43,361 nt of DNA from a virus (Duplodnaviria; Caudoviricetes). Below the pieces are notes generated by a model, which did not search any database, was not told the origin of the DNA, and saw nothing but the letters and a program-made list of their open reading frames with translations. The first letter of the stretch is position 1. The number at the start of each line of letters is the position of its first letter. Positions 4,896 to 23,913 of the stretch are shown here, one piece after another. Where the stretch lies: positions 1-43,361 of IMG/VR virus record IMGVR_UViG_3300017761_002393, one strand, 5' to 3'. Made by a program: the position numbers and the translations under genes.

Positions 4896-5333
4896 CTAAA
4901 CCATCTGAATAGCGAGGTAATCAACAAATAGTGTTATAGGACTTTGTGAATCTGTAATTGCAACGCTCATTACTGCTTCATAACCAAATTGAGTGGTACT
5001 CACTGCTTTTGCTGTTGCATAACCGTTTTTAACAGTTGTTCCGTATCGAACTTGTAGAAATACGAGAGGTGTAGAGGTAAAACGTCCCACACCAAAAGTT
5101 TTAGTTCCAATAATTAATTGGTCACCAGTAATTGTTGTAGTGAGGTTGACTGTCCCTGTTTCAATAGCGTAAGGAACTTGTCCTGCTCGAGTAATTCTTC
5201 CAGAAAAAGTTTGAGCACCTGAAAAGGTATTGTCAGCAACTTTTGAGGCATAGGAAGTTAAATCAGGTAGGGCAATAGCAAGGGAGTCCCAAGCATTCCC
5301 ATTCCAAACGTATACTTCTCTATATGTAGGCAT
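4896..5333 (-). CDS. Small tail fibre/lectin-like protein
   Basis: VYVWNGNAW motif, NTFSGAQTFS fibre repeat and an H-type-lectin-like C-terminus (FTSTPLVFLQ...VDYLAIQ). Confidence 0.55.
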   Translation of the reverse strand: MPTYREVYVWNGNAWDSLAIALPDLTSYASKVADNTFSGAQTFSGRITRAGQVPYAIETGTVNLTTTITGDQLIIGTKTFGVGRFTSTPLVFLQVRYGTTVKNGYATAKAVSTTQFGYEAVMSVAITDSQSPITLFVDYLAIQMV

Positions 5334-5335
5334 TT

Positions 5336-5521
5336 TTACTCAGGGATACTAAACTTCGTGCCGTCGTATTTCATACCAGCAACAACATTGTCTTTTTCTC
5401 TATTAAACTCAACTGCTTGTGGTTGACTTAGAAAAATAGCAGCAAGTTTGTCATCGGTTTGAAGTATTTCTGCAACTTCTCCATCAATTATAAAAGCCAG
5501 CATTCTGTTAGTATCCGCCAT
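5336..5521 (-). CDS. Small fibre-associated protein (putative chaperone)
   Basis: 61 aa with an AFIIDGEV...GMKYDGTKF pattern, resembling small proteins encoded after phage adhesins. Confidence 0.55.
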   Translation of the reverse strand: MADTNRMLAFIIDGEVAEILQTDDKLAAIFLSQPQAVEFNREKDNVVAGMKYDGTKFSIPE

Positions 5522-5522
5522 T

Positions 5523-5804
5523 TTATTCTCCTTCTGGGTTTGTAGGTTCTATGGTAACAGTCCCCCATAGTCCAATGGGGCATGAAGCATGGGCTAATTT
5601 TGTTTTTTCTGTCATAAAACAGCCACATTTAGTACATGTTTTAGTCAATTTAATCAAATGCTTACAACCCAGACAATGGTTAAGTCGATACTGTGCCGTT
5701 TCATCGTCTACTCGTTTTACGTTAGGGTTAATTAAATCCCAAGGACGAACAGCATCACCTGGGTTTTTTTCTTTCCATAACTGCCACGGACTTTTTTCAC
5801 TCAT
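5523..5804 (-). CDS. Cys-rich DUF6171-like protein
   Basis: RLNHCLGCKHL...TCTKCGCFMTEKTKLAHASCPIGLW contains 6 Cys in an R-x3-CxxC...CxxCGC...K...CP..W pattern. Confidence 0.7.
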   Translation of the reverse strand: MSEKSPWQLWKEKNPGDAVRPWDLINPNVKRVDDETAQYRLNHCLGCKHLIKLTKTCTKCGCFMTEKTKLAHASCPIGLWGTVTIEPTNPEGE

Positions 5805-5805
5805 A

Positions 5806-7119
5806 TTATGCTCCTGGTTGCTTTACCTGTATTGAACCAATTGTAGTACCTTCTTGGTAATTTGAAGGATACCCAAATATACCAAAGTTACTTCCTACGG
5901 GGGAAATAAAAGAAGAATAGGAAAGAACCTTAATTTGGTCTGCGTAGGCGTTATCCCTGTAGACGTTTATTGCCATGTTAGTGCCAACACCAAGGACTCT
6001 AAGAGCCTTAAAGTTTTCGCCAATATCAAAGTCTTGTTCTACAGTAAGAACCCCATTAACTGACTTAACTAAGTAAAGCCTATAGAAATAATTATAACCC
6101 GTAGCGGTTGATAAAGCCTGCGGACATACTTGACGAGAGCCTGTTTGTGCACAGTTTGGATAACCACAAGCAACATTTATCGTAGAAGTTCCCCCTGGGC
6201 AAGTTACTACAGTTGTGTAGGTTTGAGGGTTGTACTCTAGACATTCCCCTGTAACAGGCGTATACCCAGCACAATACTCCGACCAAAAACCAGGCTGACG
6301 TGTACACGAACGTTGCGTTACGTAGGACGTTCTACATACAGTATCTCTATCGCAACAAATAGTTGAGTATGTGGTTGTTCCTGGAGTAGTTGTACAACGA
6401 GTGATTCTATCTTCGCGAGTACAGGTTGTAACGCTTGGAGTAGTAGTTGCTCTTTGGCAGTATTTAATACATTCGTTTGTACAAGTTTGTGTAGGAACGA
6501 GTGTATCCGTACATAATATCTCACCGTCAATGTAAGTAGATGTACAGCCATAACCAACAAGTCGGTCAGCAGCACGGGTTTTACAAGTCAATGCATCGGC
6601 TTGTTGGTAAGAAGAATACCCTCCAGGACAAATTGTTTGCTGACAGATATTATCTACGATGCAATAGCCTTCATTAACTAGTGCTACTGCACAGTAAGAG
6701 TAGGTATAAGAAACTTGGTTATTCCAACCAACTAAGCCCCACCAAGTAGTAGAAGACTCTGCTCTAACTATTACGCCAACTCCTGGAACCATCTCATTTG
6801 CTTGAAGTTCAAAATCTGTTAGACCAGCATCAACTATAGCAAGGGGGTAGGTAGATTTTGAGGTAGTGAGACTTGCTTTACCATCAAGGATATTCCATGT
6901 ACCTCTAGGAGCAGTCCATGCTTGTCCTGTAGGAGAAGTTCCTAATGTTGTAGCGTTGGTTCTTTCAAAAAAATCTTTAAACTCCGACACAAAAAACTTA
7001 CGCCAAGTACCATCAACGTTTACGTAACCTTCTTTAGCCTTTATCCAAGCACCACCGCTTTTAAAAAAGACTGAACCTGAAGAGACGTAATTGTTGGCGA
7101 CTTTAATCTGAATAGGCAT
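5806..7119 (-). CDS. Tail-associated protein: beta-sandwich with an inserted 22-Cys mirror-symmetric segment
   Basis: N-terminal fibre-attachment motif (GGAWIKAKEGYVNVDGTWRKFF) and a lectin-like frame (DFFERTN...GTWNI...GVIVRA...FGIFG). All 22 Cys fall in residues 143-332. Confidence 0.75.
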   Translation of the reverse strand: MPIQIKVANNYVSSGSVFFKSGGAWIKAKEGYVNVDGTWRKFFVSEFKDFFERTNATTLGTSPTGQAWTAPRGTWNILDGKASLTTSKSTYPLAIVDAGLTDFELQANEMVPGVGVIVRAESSTTWWGLVGWNNQVSYTYSYCAVALVNEGYCIVDNICQQTICPGGYSSYQQADALTCKTRAADRLVGYGCTSTYIDGEILCTDTLVPTQTCTNECIKYCQRATTTPSVTTCTREDRITRCTTTPGTTTYSTICCDRDTVCRTSYVTQRSCTRQPGFWSEYCAGYTPVTGECLEYNPQTYTTVVTCPGGTSTINVACGYPNCAQTGSRQVCPQALSTATGYNYFYRLYLVKSVNGVLTVEQDFDIGENFKALRVLGVGTNMAINVYRDNAYADQIKVLSYSSFISPVGSNFGIFGYPSNYQEGTTIGSIQVKQPGA

Positions 7120-7130
7120 AGTACCTAGAC

Positions 7131-7799
7131 CTACACAGTGTACTTAAGCCAAATATCTCCGTTATTTCCGCCAGTTGGGTCAGAAGTAGACACGGTGATA
7201 TTACGAAGGCGGGAAGTTAATGCTTGGTCACCAGTGAGTGTTCCTCCAGTAATTTGGATAGTTGTGTCCACAGATAAAACTGAAGGGTTTGAATCAGAGT
7301 CTACCCAAATAGTTCCTTGAGGTAACCCCAACGCTACGCCATCTGGTTGAGTCTGCTGATGAAGAACAGGTTTGATTTCCTGGCTGTTGATGAAAAGTTT
7401 TCCATCTTTATCAATCTTAGTTAAAGTTGTTCCTGCTGAGTTTTCAAATCTTAGTAAGTCTGCTGTTTGGCTAGAAAATCCCTTTAGTTTAAGAGGAATA
7501 ATTGCTGCACCGTTTGCCTGAATAGTGTCGCCACCAGTATTGTGTGTGTATTGAGTGTGAGAGTCATTGACTACGCCGTATTCAAGATTTGCAATACGGG
7601 CTTTTAAAGTTGCCCAAGATGTTGTGGTTTTATCAAGAGTGCCTACCCAACCAGCACTTATTTGTGGGTCGGTTCCAATAGTTGCTTGTAGAGCACGAAC
7701 TTCATCTTGTAGAGCATTAACGTGGTCTGCTAATACGAGGTCGGTAAAGTCAACCTTGGTAGTAAAGCCTTTGACACCTGCGGGATACGAAGCGGGCAT
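7131..7799 (-). CDS. Tail fibre/collar-type structural protein
   Basis: LADHVNALQDEVRALQATIG anchor motif and a C-terminal ITVSTSDPTGGNNGDIWLKY motif typical of fibre proximal parts. Confidence 0.6.
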   Translation of the reverse strand: MPASYPAGVKGFTTKVDFTDLVLADHVNALQDEVRALQATIGTDPQISAGWVGTLDKTTTSWATLKARIANLEYGVVNDSHTQYTHNTGGDTIQANGAAIIPLKLKGFSSQTADLLRFENSAGTTLTKIDKDGKLFINSQEIKPVLHQQTQPDGVALGLPQGTIWVDSDSNPSVLSVDTTIQITGGTLTGDQALTSRLRNITVSTSDPTGGNNGDIWLKYTV

Positions 7800-11841: not shown

Positions 11842-13152
11842 TTACTTTGCATCAATCGTAGTTGTATCATGGAATCTATGTGCTGAAATACTTACAATAG
11901 ACAAAGTTGGAACCATGTTTTCAGTAAAAAGAATGTGTTTAATACTTATGTTTATAATGCGTGCCAAGTAACGTAGTTTTCTACCTAAGTGCATTTCAAT
12001 TGCCATACCATTTAACCAACCAACATCTGCTGTTTTTGCAAGGCGCAGGGGGCTTGTATACCCACCCATCTCACCATTTACTGCTTTAAATAAAAACTCT
12101 AAATCATACATGGTGCCAAAGTCTTTAATAAGTTCACGGTCTGCCTTTTTTACCACTTCAGGGTAATAGTTTTTTGAATCAGCATCTTCAATAAGAGGCG
12201 CAGTTCGTGTAGTGTTTGCTAGAACGTTCATGTCTTCAATTCTATTTAAGTATAGTGTAAAACTAATTGTGCTGCTTTGAGTTGGGGCAGTTATCATGTT
12301 TGCTTGGTCTTTTCCAGACATCATTAACTCTGGGGAAATGCCTTGTAATGTTCCAATAGTTTGGTTTAGTTCTTGCGGGTTGTAGTGAAATCTAAAGCCA
12401 TGAGGAACTTTAAAACCACCTGTTATGGCTTTTTCTTTTGGTGACTGACGTGACAGTGCAGCCTCCATTGCTTTTTTATTAGGGACAATAAAGCCCCTGT
12501 TAGTGTCTCCGTCACCAAAAGTACTTAGAGTCTCAACCATTTTTGCAGCCAACATTGGTTCTACCGCTTGTGATAATAAGGCTCTGTCAACAACAGAATT
12601 GTTTCTAAAATATGCGCTCTTTACCATTGGAGCATTAAAACGAATACTTTTCGCAGCAGGTGGTGGTGGTGCTGGTTGAGTAGGTTTAACAGGAGTAGAA
12701 TTTCCTTTGTTACTTTTAGCGTCTTTAAGTGCTTTTTGAACACGTAGTTCTGTACGGAATCTCTCTGATTCAGTCTTTAAACCTTTTGCTTCTTTAGCGT
12801 ACTCACCTTGAAGTCTTTTAATACTAGCGTCAATTTTTGTAACAGTGTTACTCGCTTCGGTAAAGTCTTTATTCGCAGCCACTATCTGATTTGCAGGAGC
12901 ATTTGCAAGAATAAGAGAGGTAAGAACGTCTTGGAGACGGCTACGATTTGCAGATACCGACACTTTTAGTCGTGCTTGTGTTTCTATTTGTTGTTGAATC
13001 CCTTTAAGAGTTTTTTGGGTTGCTTTTGCTTCCTCAGCCTTTTTTTGAGCGGCTTTTTCTTTCGCAAGTGTTTCATTTGCTTTAGAAACTCCAATAGCAA
13101 TGAGGTTATCTCTTTGGTACTTTGCACCTAGTCCTTTTATGTCTTTACCCAT
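11842..13152 (-). CDS. Tail tube initiator-like protein with N-terminal coiled coil
   Basis: The C-terminal FRFHYNPQEL...ISFTLYLNRI...INISIKHILFTENMVP resembles CIS tube-initiator domains, and the gene follows the tape measure. Confidence 0.55.
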   Translation of the reverse strand: MGKDIKGLGAKYQRDNLIAIGVSKANETLAKEKAAQKKAEEAKATQKTLKGIQQQIETQARLKVSVSANRSRLQDVLTSLILANAPANQIVAANKDFTEASNTVTKIDASIKRLQGEYAKEAKGLKTESERFRTELRVQKALKDAKSNKGNSTPVKPTQPAPPPPAAKSIRFNAPMVKSAYFRNNSVVDRALLSQAVEPMLAAKMVETLSTFGDGDTNRGFIVPNKKAMEAALSRQSPKEKAITGGFKVPHGFRFHYNPQELNQTIGTLQGISPELMMSGKDQANMITAPTQSSTISFTLYLNRIEDMNVLANTTRTAPLIEDADSKNYYPEVVKKADRELIKDFGTMYDLEFLFKAVNGEMGGYTSPLRLAKTADVGWLNGMAIEMHLGRKLRYLARIINISIKHILFTENMVPTLSIVSISAHRFHDTTTIDAK

Positions 13153-15848
13153 TATTTCTTACCCACTAACTTAAATAAGTTTTCTTTTTCAAGTTGACTC
13201 TTAACAATTTCAACTAAGTTCATTGCTTCAGCGTAAGAGGCTTGTTGCACGTTAACATTGATTGTTATAGAAGGAGATAGAGTAACTCCAGTAGAGGAAG
13301 AACTAAGTGTGGCTACAGAAGGACTACCGCCACCCGAAGGTCCAAGTCTTTCTAGGTAACGTCCGTTTGTGTAAGCAGACCAAGGCTTCCAGTTTGTTCC
13401 GCCTTTAGATATTGCGTAAGCAACTCTGGCATTCGTTGCTGGGTCATACAAGTCTTCATTTGAATTCAACCCGTGTGTTTTACGACGTGCTGGTCCTAAA
13501 TCACCCAACATATTAATTTGAAATAATCCGTATGAGTCATCTTTTAAAAGACTAGGGTGGCTTTTAGCATTAGCCCTTCCACCAGATTCAGCCTTTGCTA
13601 CACCATACGCAATTGATAACGCTTCACCAGTAAAACCAGCAGCCTTTAATGTTGCAATAAGACTTTCATCTGGCATTGGGTCGTAACTTCCTTGACCTCG
13701 GTTACTGGTTGTGCTTCCGTTTGTAGAGCCAGAAGCCCCACCGCTCAAAGCATTAATTCCCGCACTTGATGCTAACTCAAGTAATGACTTAGAACCATAC
13801 TGCTTTAAGTCATACTCTTGTGTTTGAATACCTGAAATACCACCACTAGTACCAGCACCTAAAATGCTACCTAAACCGCCAGCACCCGCCTTTGATAGTT
13901 CATCTGGGTTAACTGGGTTATTTTTTCCTTTACGTACTTCATAGTGCAAGTGTGGTCCTGTGACTTTTCCAGTGTCACCACTTTTTGCAATTAACTGCCC
14001 TTTAGTAACAGCAGCACCAACAGAAACAACTACTTCAGATAAGTGTCCGTACAAAGTTTGGTAACCGTTACCGTGGTCAATTTCTACGGTCTTACCGTAA
14101 TCAGAACCAGGATTTGTATTAATAATTATTCCGTCTAAAGAAGCATAGACAGGAGTACCTATAGGACATGGATAATCTTGACCTGTGTGAGTTCCGCCAG
14201 ACCAAAGACTTCCTGATGCACCGTAAGGAGTTCCTACACCGCCATTAGTAATTGGAGATGCAGGATTTGCATTTCCAGTTCCACTTCCTCCAAAAGATGC
14301 TCCGTAACCTGGAGAACCTCCACCAGAACCAAAGTAACCAGCAATTGCACCGATACCAGTACCAATTACTGTTCCAACACCTGGGAAAATGGCTGTTCCA
14401 ATTGCTGCTCCAATACCTGCAGCAGCAGCCGTAGAACCAGCACGAGTAACATTTTGGTTTACGCCTAAAGCGTTGCCTAATGCTTTTCCGCCCTTACCTG
14501 TTAAGTAACCACCTGCAGCAGAAAGCCCAACAGTTGCAGCAGCACCTGCAGCAGTAATACCTCCAGCAACAGCAGCAGCACCTCCTGCAGCAGCAGTACC
14601 ACCTGCAGCACTCAGCATACCCTTTACCATCATGCCACCACCCAAAACACCAATAAGTGTGCCAATAGCGGATATAAGTCCACCTATAGCAATACCAAGT
14701 CCACCACCTGCACGTGATTCACCCATACCGCCTAAAAATCCAGAGGCTCTTCCTGCAACACTAGCCATATCTTCTAAAGCGGGGTTAACAGTGTTAACAA
14801 TTAAATCTGCTGCTGACTTAAACCCTGCTAATACAGGTTCGGTATAAGTGTTTAAAACAGATGTGTCGGATGTGGTGATACGCATTTTATCTACGTTTGG
14901 GTTTTGTCCATAACCGAGTTTTGATAGGTCAGTTTGTTTTCCCTGCACTCTATCAACGGAGTACTGCATAAATAGTTGTCTTTGGTCTTCTGTCATTCCA
15001 AGGTCAGTTGCAGTTTTTCCAAAGATACCTGCTTGAAAACTATTCATAGTATCTTCTAAACTCATCTTGCCTTGACCTTGAGTTAAACGACTGTAAATCT
15101 GACCAAAAATTTCATCTTGGCCTCTAGCCTTACCTGTTTTTTGGTCAAAAGTACTGATACCAATGTTGTATAAACGAGAAGAAAAGTCTCCTTGAGTAAA
15201 TCCAGACATTGCAACCATAGCATTTTCGTTTGCCATGTTCATGTAACGTGCAGCACCACCAACGTCACCAACTAAAGCATTGTATTGAGCACTTCCTGGC
15301 ATAATGCCTCGTGATGCAGCGATACCAGCAATGTTAGAAGGTGCAAGTGTGCTTGTAACACCACCTGCTAAACCACCAAAAGTTGCGTTCATTACCGCAG
15401 TACGACTCATACCAGAACGGATAGATGCTCCGTAATAGTTAGCAGCACTTGCTCCAACTTCGGCAACACCAGGAACAGCAGCCATTACTCCAGCAGCCAT
15501 ACCAAAGGTTGCTTGAGCAACTCCTTGTGCAACTCCTAGTGCTCTTGCTCCACGAGTAGGTGTTAAGCCAAAGCGAGTAGCCTCCATGCCCTCTCGCATA
15601 GCAATTTCTGCTGTGCTATCTGCTTTTTCTTGCCCACTAAAAGTTGCCTTTTCCATGTGGGGCATTTGGCTACCTGCACCAGAACCAATATGACGGTCAC
15701 CACCACCTTTGGCAGACTTTGCTTTTCCAGCAACTCCGCCCATGGAACCTTCAAGGCGTTTGGTAATTTGCTCAGCAGAAGTCAGGCTTTTGACAATGCT
15801 GGATAACAATTCGTCGGTTTGTTTTAACGAATCATTTAATTCTGCCAC
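13152..15848 (-). CDS. Tape measure protein with M23 peptidase and lytic transglycosylase domains
   Basis: Ala/Gly-rich helical body; M23 motifs HTGQD...YGHLS...GPHLHYEVR; SLT motifs AESGG...YGLFQIN...LYDPATNARVA...WKPWSAY. Confidence 0.9.
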   Translation of the reverse strand: MAELNDSLKQTDELLSSIVKSLTSAEQITKRLEGSMGGVAGKAKSAKGGGDRHIGSGAGSQMPHMEKATFSGQEKADSTAEIAMREGMEATRFGLTPTRGARALGVAQGVAQATFGMAAGVMAAVPGVAEVGASAANYYGASIRSGMSRTAVMNATFGGLAGGVTSTLAPSNIAGIAASRGIMPGSAQYNALVGDVGGAARYMNMANENAMVAMSGFTQGDFSSRLYNIGISTFDQKTGKARGQDEIFGQIYSRLTQGQGKMSLEDTMNSFQAGIFGKTATDLGMTEDQRQLFMQYSVDRVQGKQTDLSKLGYGQNPNVDKMRITTSDTSVLNTYTEPVLAGFKSAADLIVNTVNPALEDMASVAGRASGFLGGMGESRAGGGLGIAIGGLISAIGTLIGVLGGGMMVKGMLSAAGGTAAAGGAAAVAGGITAAGAAATVGLSAAGGYLTGKGGKALGNALGVNQNVTRAGSTAAAAGIGAAIGTAIFPGVGTVIGTGIGAIAGYFGSGGGSPGYGASFGGSGTGNANPASPITNGGVGTPYGASGSLWSGGTHTGQDYPCPIGTPVYASLDGIIINTNPGSDYGKTVEIDHGNGYQTLYGHLSEVVVSVGAAVTKGQLIAKSGDTGKVTGPHLHYEVRKGKNNPVNPDELSKAGAGGLGSILGAGTSGGISGIQTQEYDLKQYGSKSLLELASSAGINALSGGASGSTNGSTTSNRGQGSYDPMPDESLIATLKAAGFTGEALSIAYGVAKAESGGRANAKSHPSLLKDDSYGLFQINMLGDLGPARRKTHGLNSNEDLYDPATNARVAYAISKGGTNWKPWSAYTNGRYLERLGPSGGGSPSVATLSSSSTGVTLSPSITINVNVQQASYAEAMNLVEIVKSQLEKENLFKLVGKK

Positions 15849-22291: not shown

Positions 22292-23353
22292 CTAAGCAGA
22301 ATAGAACTCTAAATTACGTTTTAGACGTTCATCATTAGGTTCTATGTTAAGTGCTTCTTGTCCAAATGTCAGGGCATCCTCTTTAAAACCTAAGTGATAA
22401 GAAGAAATTGCTGCCATATCGTATGGTGTGTAACCCCATGCTTTAGGGTCTGTTAAGTATTCAAGTGGTCGTTGTTTGATGTCTAGTGCTCTCTTTGCCA
22501 TTCGAAGGCAAGCATGCCAATCACTGATGCTGTAGTAATACTCAGATAGTTCAACTAAGGCTTCTCTAGATTCAGGGTATTCCTCTTGTGCTTTCATTAG
22601 CCATTCTTCTTTTTCAGCACCTTCAGAACAACGAGCAATGTAACGCATTGATGCAGCACGTTCTGGTTTCCAAACAGCATTTGGCAACGAAAGATGTCGT
22701 TGCAACTCTGCCTTTGCTTTGTCGCACATTCCATTGAAGTAATACTCTCTACCTAAGTAGTGAGCATTTCTATCATCGTTTGGACTTTCTGCTACAGCCA
22801 TTTCTAACAAGGGGAAGTACTGACTTCTAGATTTAGTATTGTCTGGGTAGTGATGTATCTGTAAATCTGTCCATGATTGAGTCTCTTCTATCCCGTAATT
22901 TCGCATAACCTCATGCACAGGGTGTGTCCACCTGTATCCCTTACGTGAATGAATCTTATCTCCACTGTAAGTTAAACCTTCAGAACCATCTGCATTCCAA
23001 GACCATGTGTATTTATAACGGGGACGAGTAATTCCTTCAGGAACTTTCTCTAACTCTTCACGCCATCCCGCAACAAAAATTTCGTCCATATCTAATGCGA
23101 TGCAATAGTCCATGTCTTTAGGGATTGCAGCAACTGCTGCATTTCGTGCATCATCAAATCTCCAAGGAACAATAGCAATTTGAACAACGTTAATTCCCAA
23201 TGCTTTGGCTTTTTTAATTGTCTTATCTGTTGAACCAGTATCTGCAATGAGAAGGAAGTCTGCTTCTTTAGCAGCCTCATACCAACGCTCTACAAACTGT
23301 TCCTCATTTAACGCAATTGCATAAACAGCGATTTTTAGTTTTTTTGTAGCCAT
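22292..23353 (-). CDS. Glycosyltransferase family 2 with C-terminal TPR repeats
   Basis: KIAVYAIALNEEQFVERW...DTGSTD...FDDARNAA...LDMDE (DxD)...VHE, plus TPR helices (RNAHYLGREY, REALVELSEYYY). Confidence 0.92.
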   Translation of the reverse strand: MATKKLKIAVYAIALNEEQFVERWYEAAKEADFLLIADTGSTDKTIKKAKALGINVVQIAIVPWRFDDARNAAVAAIPKDMDYCIALDMDEIFVAGWREELEKVPEGITRPRYKYTWSWNADGSEGLTYSGDKIHSRKGYRWTHPVHEVMRNYGIEETQSWTDLQIHHYPDNTKSRSQYFPLLEMAVAESPNDDRNAHYLGREYYFNGMCDKAKAELQRHLSLPNAVWKPERAASMRYIARCSEGAEKEEWLMKAQEEYPESREALVELSEYYYSISDWHACLRMAKRALDIKQRPLEYLTDPKAWGYTPYDMAAISSYHLGFKEDALTFGQEALNIEPNDERLKRNLEFYSA

Positions 23354-23913
23354 ACCTGTAACCCTTTTTCTAGCACTGTGAATTCATGAGCAGGTACGCA
23401 AGAAAGAATTGCGTCAATTGCAGGTTTAGGGTCATAGAAAGGTTCTTTACCAAGAGACCACATGTAGTCATCAAAAGCCAAAATACCGTTAGGTTTTAAA
23501 CAGAGCAGAGCGTTCATACTATCTTTGAGCACTGACATGGCCCTGTGGTCGCCGTCAATGTAAATGAAGTCAAAAGAAGATACGTTCCTGCTAAAGAACT
23601 CATCACTAGTCATTTTGCGTTTATAAAGACGTTCTTCATTTTGAAACCAAAGAGTTCTTAAGTCATAGGTCTCTTCTACGCTATGCCAGTTCATCTCTGC
23701 GTGGGCTGGCTCTTCTGAACCTTCCCAGGTGTCAACATCAGTTAAAGTTGAGTTAACATTTTTAAAGGCGTTAGCGAATAACCATTGAGTAGCATCACCT
23801 GTGTATGCACCTATTTGTAAACAGTTAAGGTTTTTTTCAGCAAGGGGCAAAAGAAACTTTTCAAAGTTTGCTTCTGCTCCACCTGCTTTAAACCAGTTTG
23901 GGTAGTCCGTCAT
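23335..23913 (-). CDS. Class I SAM-dependent methyltransferase (Methyltransf_24-like)
   Basis: LQIGAYTGDAT...VDTWEGS...FDFIYIDGDH...LKPNGILAFDDY. Confidence 0.9.
   Translation of the reverse strand: MTDYPNWFKAGGAEANFEKFLLPLAEKNLNCLQIGAYTGDATQWLFANAFKNVNSTLTDVDTWEGSEEPAHAEMNWHSVEETYDLRTLWFQNEERLYKRKMTSDEFFSRNVSSFDFIYIDGDHRAMSVLKDSMNALLCLKPNGILAFDDYMWSLGKEPFYDPKPAIDAILSCVPAHEFTVLEKGLQVWLQKN

Follow-up and report, generated by a model that had tools for sequence, protein, structure and literature searches.

A 437-aa protein encoded near the end of a phage structural operon (positions 5806..7119, minus strand) is probably a fibre-tip adhesin in which a lectin-like base carries a single-chain needle stapled by disulfides. 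The needle corresponds to a mirror-symmetric insert of 190 residues with 22 cysteines (6124..6693, minus strand), and the symmetry of the cysteines, their covariation among relatives and an AF2 model together predict an out-and-back beta-hairpin with 11 Cys pairs. Hairpin and base are structural predictions, and we infer that the protein docks on a fibre, is oxidised and binds a receptor. The open reading frame matches no Pfam family, and a Pfam search of 81 family members returned only three weak matches, each to a single member.

The window, that is, the whole stretch of DNA analysed (43,361 nt), is a virus record representing a 45%-complete genome fragment. Pfam and PHROG matches identify it as the structural operon of a contractile-tailed phage, with terminase, portal, capsid, collagen-like fibres, sheath, tube, tape measure, baseplate hub, wedge and gp5-like spike genes. 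Behind them are genes for a 222-aa fibre-like protein, the needle protein, a 93-aa six-Cys protein and a 61-aa protein, in that order. The first-pass annotation, made from the sequence alone, had placed the needle in a tail protein, and this context agrees with it, with a fibre-like gene directly upstream and a contractile-tail operon around. Elsewhere in the window, a glycosyltransferase gene (phrog_13126, E 1e-116) and a methyltransferase gene lie among the virion genes (22292-23913), adjoining collagen-like and very large fibre genes, so virion glycosylation is possible. The tape-measure-like protein (13152-15848) contains M23 peptidase and lysozyme-like (SLT_3) domains.

The capsid protein shares 68-70% identity with its counterparts in the Streptomyces phages LuckySocke, Alone3 and BRock. 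The DNA is listed in 24 runs, all of them metagenomes or metatranscriptomes from freshwater or lakes. Because of the capsid resemblance and the freshwater origin, the host is likely an actinobacterium. Searches with the needle protein found no match among PDB chain sequences (E up to 1) or GTDB contigs, and no full needle protein in cultured phage records, where a distant member was matched only by its N-terminal 43-47 residues.

The gene directly upstream (7131..7799, minus strand) encodes a 222-aa fibre/adaptor protein with a conserved C-terminal RNITVSTSDPTGGNNGDIWLKY segment. Judging from synteny and from a match of residues 196-220 to a tail fibre family (phrog_14064, E 2e-5), it is likely the mount for the needle protein. 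The needle protein itself begins with a module of 44 residues (6988..7119, minus strand; phrog_25859, E 2e-4) made of three short beta-repeats, two of them ending in Trp, which has low pLDDT in the AF2 monomer and is predicted to dock on the upstream fibre. There are 43 distinct cases with this module in which an upstream ORF was in view; they come mostly from one phage clade and provide a gene-order correlation only. In 35 of them the upstream gene ends in GD-hydrophobic-W followed by a few further residues, against a background of 39 of 1350 ORFs of the same loci (those fibre genes included).

All 22 cysteines of the protein lie within residues 143-332 (codon of C143 at 6691-6693, codon of C332 at 6124-6126) and are arranged symmetrically about residue 237.5. 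Pairing the first with the last, and so on inwards, gives sums of 471-477 with a standard deviation of 1.72. A value this low was obtained in one of 200,000 random placements of the 20 inner cysteines with the ends fixed, and in 33 of 200,000 shuffles of the actual Cys spacings. The positions and nested sums are exactly those given in the first-pass annotation, and the symmetry that it described holds up against shuffled cysteines by both procedures. The sequence also contains the motifs it had listed: ICPGG (163-167) and TCPGG (306-310), TTTP on both sides of the tip (225-228 and 243-246), and the tip itself, C-TREDRITR-C. ICPGG/TCPGG and TTTP have the same orientation on both arms and are not reversed copies. 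The insert had further been described as rich in Thr, Tyr and Val; this is correct for Thr (37 of 190 insert residues versus 21 of 247 outside), but Val is not enriched (13/190 versus 23/247) and Tyr hardly so (13/190 versus 15/247). Residue counts show no His anywhere in the 437-aa protein.

An inverted repeat at the DNA level was considered as the cause of the Cys mirror and rejected: only 13 short inverted pairs of 12-20 nt are present, and there is no long inverted pair centred on the tip. An assembly artefact is ruled out because a contig of 2153 nt obtained in a different study (run X3) spans 5300-7136 with only two letters different, and because three IMG/VR loci (L001-L003) encode proteins 100% identical to the needle protein over residues 1-437. 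Contigs from RNA libraries also span the region of the needle gene, which cannot indicate transcription. Gaps over the insert in low-depth contigs were not read as a sign of a hypervariable island.

Two homolog searches yielded 88 full-length relatives with 30-90% identity to the query, making 89 proteins in total. The number of cysteines ranges from 14 to 34 and is even in 88 of the 89, and no member has a single Cys outside the insert (residues 140-336). Measured by rung-to-rung drift, all 89 are mirror-symmetric at p<0.01, and the symmetry holds across inserts of differing length. Cysteines are also gained and lost in mirror pairs. Among the 36 closest homologs, both members of the pair 174/301 are present in 17, only the first in one, only the second in none and neither in 18; the corresponding counts are 15, 1, 0 and 20 for 224/251 and 20, 0, 0 and 16 for 226/249. 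A mirror pair is broken in two of these 36 rows, compared with disagreement in 7 to 27 of the 36 for the 12 non-mirror Cys combinations. In a 44-sequence alignment the tip pair 233/242 is distributed as 39, 0, 0 and 5, and a clade-specific pair, 194/281, as 4, 0, 0 and 40. On a tree built without the insert, the states of the rungs 174/301, 224/251 and 226/249 switch 4 to 9 times. A phylogenetically independent sign test of paired change was not significant (p 0.25 at best), although it is underpowered because just 1 to 4 pairs fall on well-supported branches. Variable rungs thus come and go as mirror pairs across relatives. Local Cys clusters of the Zn finger or EGF-like kind were rejected, since the covarying partners, which are 23, 27 and 127 residues apart, sit at mirror positions and the AF2 strands are extended.

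The first-pass annotation proposed that all pairs are nested. This probably stands for nine rungs, but not for the four cysteines of a conserved CxxxC/CC site in the distal stalk. The outgoing half of this site (C213, C217 and C221; 6457..6483, minus strand) and the returning half (C255, C256 and C262; 6334..6357, minus strand) are defined by patterns of joint loss, and the returning CCDRDTVC segment is the best-conserved part of the distal stalk, with a non-Cys identity of 0.78 versus 0.35-0.46 around it. All four cysteines (217, 221, 255 and 256) are present at the query's spacing in 46 of the 89 proteins, the insert stops before the site in 17, and 16 have shifted or different patterns. The remaining 10 retain two cysteines, always the equivalents of 217 and 255 and never those of 221 and 256. 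Because all ten keep this combination, the simplest reading is that the pairing here is probably crossed, 217-255 and 221-256, rather than nested, although the cysteines may instead have re-paired after 221 and 256 were lost. A crossed knot is ill-suited to a simple two-stranded ladder.

The same site bears on a different explanation, in which the hairpin is real and its matched cysteines either bind metal or cross-link the subunits of a dimer or trimer of hairpins. The knot does bring four Cys together, yet a four-ligand metal site should not tolerate the loss of two of them, as seen in 10 of the 89 proteins, and the protein has no His and rungs that are mostly 5-15 residues apart. Mirror covariation is blind to whether antiparallel pairs form within or between chains, and phage proteins are synthesised in the reducing cytoplasm. 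In the accessible text of the Milano and Pam3 studies, inter-chain disulfides are common. However, each rung is gained or lost as a pair of cysteines, on its own and without regard to neighbouring rungs, and the AF2 monomer model already pairs both arms. On balance we regard metal binding or inter-chain cross-linking as improbable, and favour intrachain disulfides.

The AF2 model, built from 44 sequences (mean pLDDT 80.5, with 67-88 in blocks of the insert; pTM only 0.54), is all-beta. The strand pairs predicted in the insert, 201-226/249-274, 230-236/239-245, 193-197/278-282, 186-190/285-289, 179-182/293-296 and 169-174/301-306, each sum to 475, so the strands mirror one another about residue 237.5, which is what a single long antiparallel hairpin, as first suggested, would look like in a model. 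The strands are interrupted by short breaks at Pro/Gly motifs, and the ribbon is therefore predicted to be segmented. Counting residues gives a length of at most about 30 nm.

The insert splits a ConA-like or CBM66-like beta-sandwich formed by residues 46-142 (6694..6984, minus strand) and 333-437 (5809..6123, minus strand). In VIA-align comparisons, the modelled base matched CBM66 (4b1m; Z 16.5, rmsd 2.3, 148 residues aligned), the receptor-binding domain of TM4 gp23 (9n6a; Z 15.5) and a Douge baseplate chain (8zdo; Z 14.7). These matches, with the lack of outside cysteines in 89 of 89 proteins, support the earlier description of a Cys-free, lectin-like beta-sandwich interrupted by the insert. 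In copies of the domain that lack the insert (P0138), a turn of a few residues occupies the needle position, and the hairpin is predicted to replace one beta-turn of the ConA-like domain. Such copies occur in tandem-repeat proteins with signal-peptide-like N-termini. A BFVD search gave uncharacterised proteins of uncultured phages as its six best matches, followed by actinophage minor tail proteins.

Foldseek found no match to the model in the PDB at E up to 0.001. Its weak matches (best E 0.015-0.1, TM-score about 0.1; E 0.017 or weaker for cap and stem) are to fusion proteins and, mostly, to toxins in the pore state, built of a beta-sandwich cap and a stem that is a long hairpin, a resemblance that would fit hairpins of several subunits joining into a long, envelope-piercing beta-barrel, as in a beta-pore-forming toxin or a conduit for genome ejection. 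We consider this very unlikely. The insert lacks a hydrophobic or alternating belt: its highest 19-residue hydropathy is 0.73, at the root, and near the tip both faces are polar, unlike an amphipathic membrane-spanning segment. The stalk is also hypervariable, broken by Pro/Gly and free to change length, which is not expected of a barrel interface, and the phage already has a contractile tube.

Variation in the protein is concentrated in the stalk. Among the 36 close homologs, non-Cys identity falls from 0.86-0.90 in the flanks and 0.83-0.86 at the stalk root to 0.35-0.46 over the mid and distal stalk. Estimated over nine loci, pN/pS rises from 0.18 in the base to 0.68 in the mid stalk, with 0.50 in the distal stalk; pS is likewise higher in the stalk (0.61 versus 0.41). 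The raised pS suggests imported alleles, and positive selection is not proven; because pS is up and pN/pS stays below 1, relaxed constraint or recombination explains the variation equally well as receptor-driven selection. Within the close family the cysteines span 154-202 residues, and shorter forms end at an earlier rung; the needle telescopes, changing length at its distal end.

The tip loop, C233-TREDRITR-C242 (6394..6423, minus strand), is exchangeable across the family, with 61 different innermost loops among 88 proteins. In counts that are dominated by close relatives, Lys/Arg make up 18% of tip residues versus 5% in the stalk, and Phe/Trp 5% versus 2%. RED-type and PKW-type tips are each intact and interleaved on the tree of the base, and TREDRITR recurs in homologs whose identity to the query is only about 38-40%. 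This pattern is relevant to the idea that the needle is a passive, non-specific antenna, which would widen the capture radius by sticking to particles or surface polymers while specificity resides only in the lectin-like base and the stalk varies by drift or recombination. Such an antenna would be consistent with pN/pS below 1 everywhere and raised pS in the stalk, with the resemblance of the base to actinophage glycan-binding modules, and with tolerance both of Cys-free versions and of lengths anywhere between about 50 and 320 residues. It does not readily explain why tips remain intact yet scattered on the base tree, or why they are enriched in basic and aromatic residues, and we think it unlikely compared with a stalk whose tip contributes to recognition.

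A more distant set comprised 153 hits (P0090-P0242), of which 75 have one split domain. At least eight insert cysteines are present in 67 of these 75, with an even count in 65 of the 67, and insert lengths range from about 50 to 324 residues. Strict ladders are fewer here, numbering 22 of the 67 at p<0.01 and 35 at p<0.05, so that the expected symmetry in homologs, universal among the 89 full-length members, extends to only part of the distant Cys-rich relatives. Those with symmetric outer and irregular inner cysteines may be stalk-plus-knob forms. Several long proteins (among them P0138, P0156, P0158 and P0108) were rejected as ladders, their tiny standard deviations reflecting tandem repeats in which local Cys pairs flank insert-free domains. 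In six others (P0141, P0164, P0173, P0200, P0232 and P0127), near-perfect short repeats with periods of about 7-13 residues on the outgoing arm are matched by repeats on the returning arm, which suggests growth by paired tandem duplication.

Two distant proteins have no insert at all, and three have Cys-free inserts with 25% Tyr (P0122, P0132 and P0234). The Tyr-rich, Cys-free insert is apparently a second way to stabilise a needle, and its existence indicates that disulfides are not generally required for the design. At loci of Cys-free, Tyr-rich relatives (L143:4001-5134, L146:1075-2253, L144 and L145), other accessory genes follow. Relatives of 500-880 aa at L030-L041 carry additional domains ahead of the split sandwich, and their CxC/CxxC-containing inserts are less regular; the small gene and the DUF6171-like gene described below are still downstream, in swapped order. 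P0131 and P0221 combine the same N-terminal module with an insert-free sandwich and have 34-40 cysteines elsewhere in the chain, which in P0131 are located in a Cys/Pro-rich C-terminal tail and not in an internal needle.

Two small genes follow the needle gene. The first (5523..5804, minus strand) encodes a 93-aa DUF6171-like protein with six Cys that are invariant in an alignment (CxxC...CxxCxC...CP). It matches phrog_13558 (E 8e-16) and, below the curated cut-off of 27 bits, PF19668 (E 3e-4, 21.4 bits); its top three named clusters in the Atlas scored 0.92-0.93, with DUF6171 in 28-50% of members. The second (5336..5521, minus strand) encodes a Cys-free protein of 61 aa, recognised by synteny and a match to phrog_14370 (E 0.002). 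The 61-aa gene accompanies both Cys-rich and Cys-free needles, and its product is a candidate assembly chaperone.

Both genes occur within 3 kb of 29 of 29 distinct Cys-rich ladders (ladder queries with at least 1.5 kb downstream). At four Cys-free needle loci, the small gene is present in all four and the DUF6171-like gene is absent from the fetched flanks of three, two of which are close relatives; the fourth has a divergent, five-Cys copy. No DUF6171-like gene was found at ten loci that were matched through the N-terminal module only (0-2 Cys; L124 ends just after the match). A strict one-to-one link between DUF6171 and ladders is nevertheless rejected, because the gene is also found near other Cys-rich tail-like proteins or without a Cys-rich neighbour in view. 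Among six DUF6171-like regions of cultured phages, a Cys-rich fibre or adhesin is close upstream only in S-SRM01 and S-IOM18. In Synechococcus phage S-SRM01 (MW015081.1; L139:2883-4336), the gene directly follows that for an annotated glycine-rich adhesin of 362 aa, whose Cys-rich insert has nine Cys in residues 205-260 with roughly nested outer pairs; this may be the same architecture built on another scaffold. At L043, L057 and L063-L069, the proteins encoded next to the DUF6171-like genes contain long Pro/Thr/Val repeats, runs of low complexity (Phe/Pro or GAF-type) and small modules rich in Cys.

A role of the DUF6171-like protein as a maturation helper is plausible from this distribution, and a catalytic role is speculative. 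Its model (pLDDT 80.7) matches no fold (best Foldseek E 9.6, best VIA Z 2.0), and an oxidoreductase role therefore has no structural support. A search of the 45%-complete genome for Erv1/Alr gave no match, and the control was also unmatched. According to the accessible text of a 2026 paper, phages likely use host enzymes or spontaneous oxidation for their disulfides, and a thiol oxidoreductase has yet to be described for any phage (PMC13576161). A bolder reading, which we hold only tentatively and consider doubtful as a whole, is that of a widespread cassette: a telescoping, disulfide-runged single-chain needle, tens of nm long, whose exchangeable tip crosses the host wall and sets host range, and which brings its own oxidative-folding factor, the DUF6171-like protein. 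If so, that protein would be the first phage-encoded disulfide-forming catalyst, lost or decayed beside Tyr-stitched, Cys-free needles.

The adhesin that we favour would work as follows. One beta-turn of the ConA-like domain would be drawn out into a two-stranded hairpin of ~95 residues per arm, likely kept in register by about 11 intrachain disulfides, and the N-terminal module would dock on the 222-aa fibre encoded upstream, at its C-terminal tip. The hairpin would zip by beta-pairing in the cytoplasm, perhaps assisted by the 61-aa protein, and the Cys pairs would be oxidised at or after lysis, spontaneously or helped by the DUF6171-like protein. Nine nested rungs and the crossed knot (217-255 and 221-256) would then stiffen an otherwise floppy ribbon of up to about 30 nm. 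The lectin-like base may bind a wall glycan, while the variable stalk would extend through or along the envelope and bring its basic/aromatic tip to a strain-specific receptor, with rung number and tip sequence tuning reach and host range.

If true, this would be a new kind of host-recognition stalk, made from one chain folded back and stapled rung by rung rather than from a trimeric fibre, and its length and tip could be altered by simple insertions and swaps. It would be a likely determinant of host range in common uncultured freshwater phages that probably infect actinobacteria, and could serve as a natural scaffold for display, rigid, adjustable in length and much longer than the cystine ladders known so far. 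It would also offer a handle on how phages make disulfides, through a candidate gene (DUF6171-like) and natural Cys-free controls.

The base has the same fold as the ConA-like domains 9n6a, 8zdo and 4b1m (Z 14.7-16.5, 148-176 residues aligned), and with TM4 gp23 and Douge it shares a tail context and a probable actinobacterial host. The CBM of the Douge BppU binds mycobacterial surface glycans, as reported in the accessible part of that study (PMC13033339). The alignments cover the sandwich only, which here is split by a 190-residue, 22-Cys hairpin.

Theta-defensins and peptides of the protegrin/tachyplesin type are cystine-ladder hairpins of fewer than 20 residues with 2-3 rungs. The needle would be like them in having cross-strand Cys pairs as rungs, as the model and the covariation suggest. 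It differs in size, with 11 pairs (between 7 and 17 across the close family) spread over some 150-200 residues within a folded domain, and in one probable crossed knot. Theta-defensins are short cyclic peptides with three rungs, whereas here the insert has 190 residues in a 437-aa protein; it is ladder-like and not a member of that class. We found no paper describing 7-17 Cys pairs on a hairpin of 150-200 residues in a literature search that covered main texts and few subscription papers.

Pam3 (PMC9942802), Milano (PMC10811340) and Jabs (PMC13419713) are, from the accessible text of each study, likewise cases of cytoplasm-made virion proteins that carry disulfides; those of the Milano short fibre are C29-C67, C84-C102 and C127-C144. 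The bonds described in these texts join subunits or are short-range within a chain, and no long nested ladder is described in them. The gp38 adhesins of T-even phages and S16 are encoded by a separate gene after the fibre gene, attach through an N-terminal module and are hypervariable in their distal part. They may provide an analogy for how the needle protein works, as it too is encoded separately after a fibre gene. As far as the accessible text shows, gp38-type adhesins form a glycine-rich lattice (PMC9942802). The protein described here has instead an all-beta, ConA-like base and a hairpin, with no polyglycine lattice. Bovine antibodies with an ultralong CDR-H3 also present a variable tip on a beta-ribbon that emerges from a beta-sandwich, with a short stalk and disulfides in a terminal knob; the needle would share the ribbon and the sandwich, with cysteines along its whole stalk and no knob. 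The scaffold and its general role are already known, and the needle architecture on this known adhesin scaffold appears to be new, judging by the papers searched.
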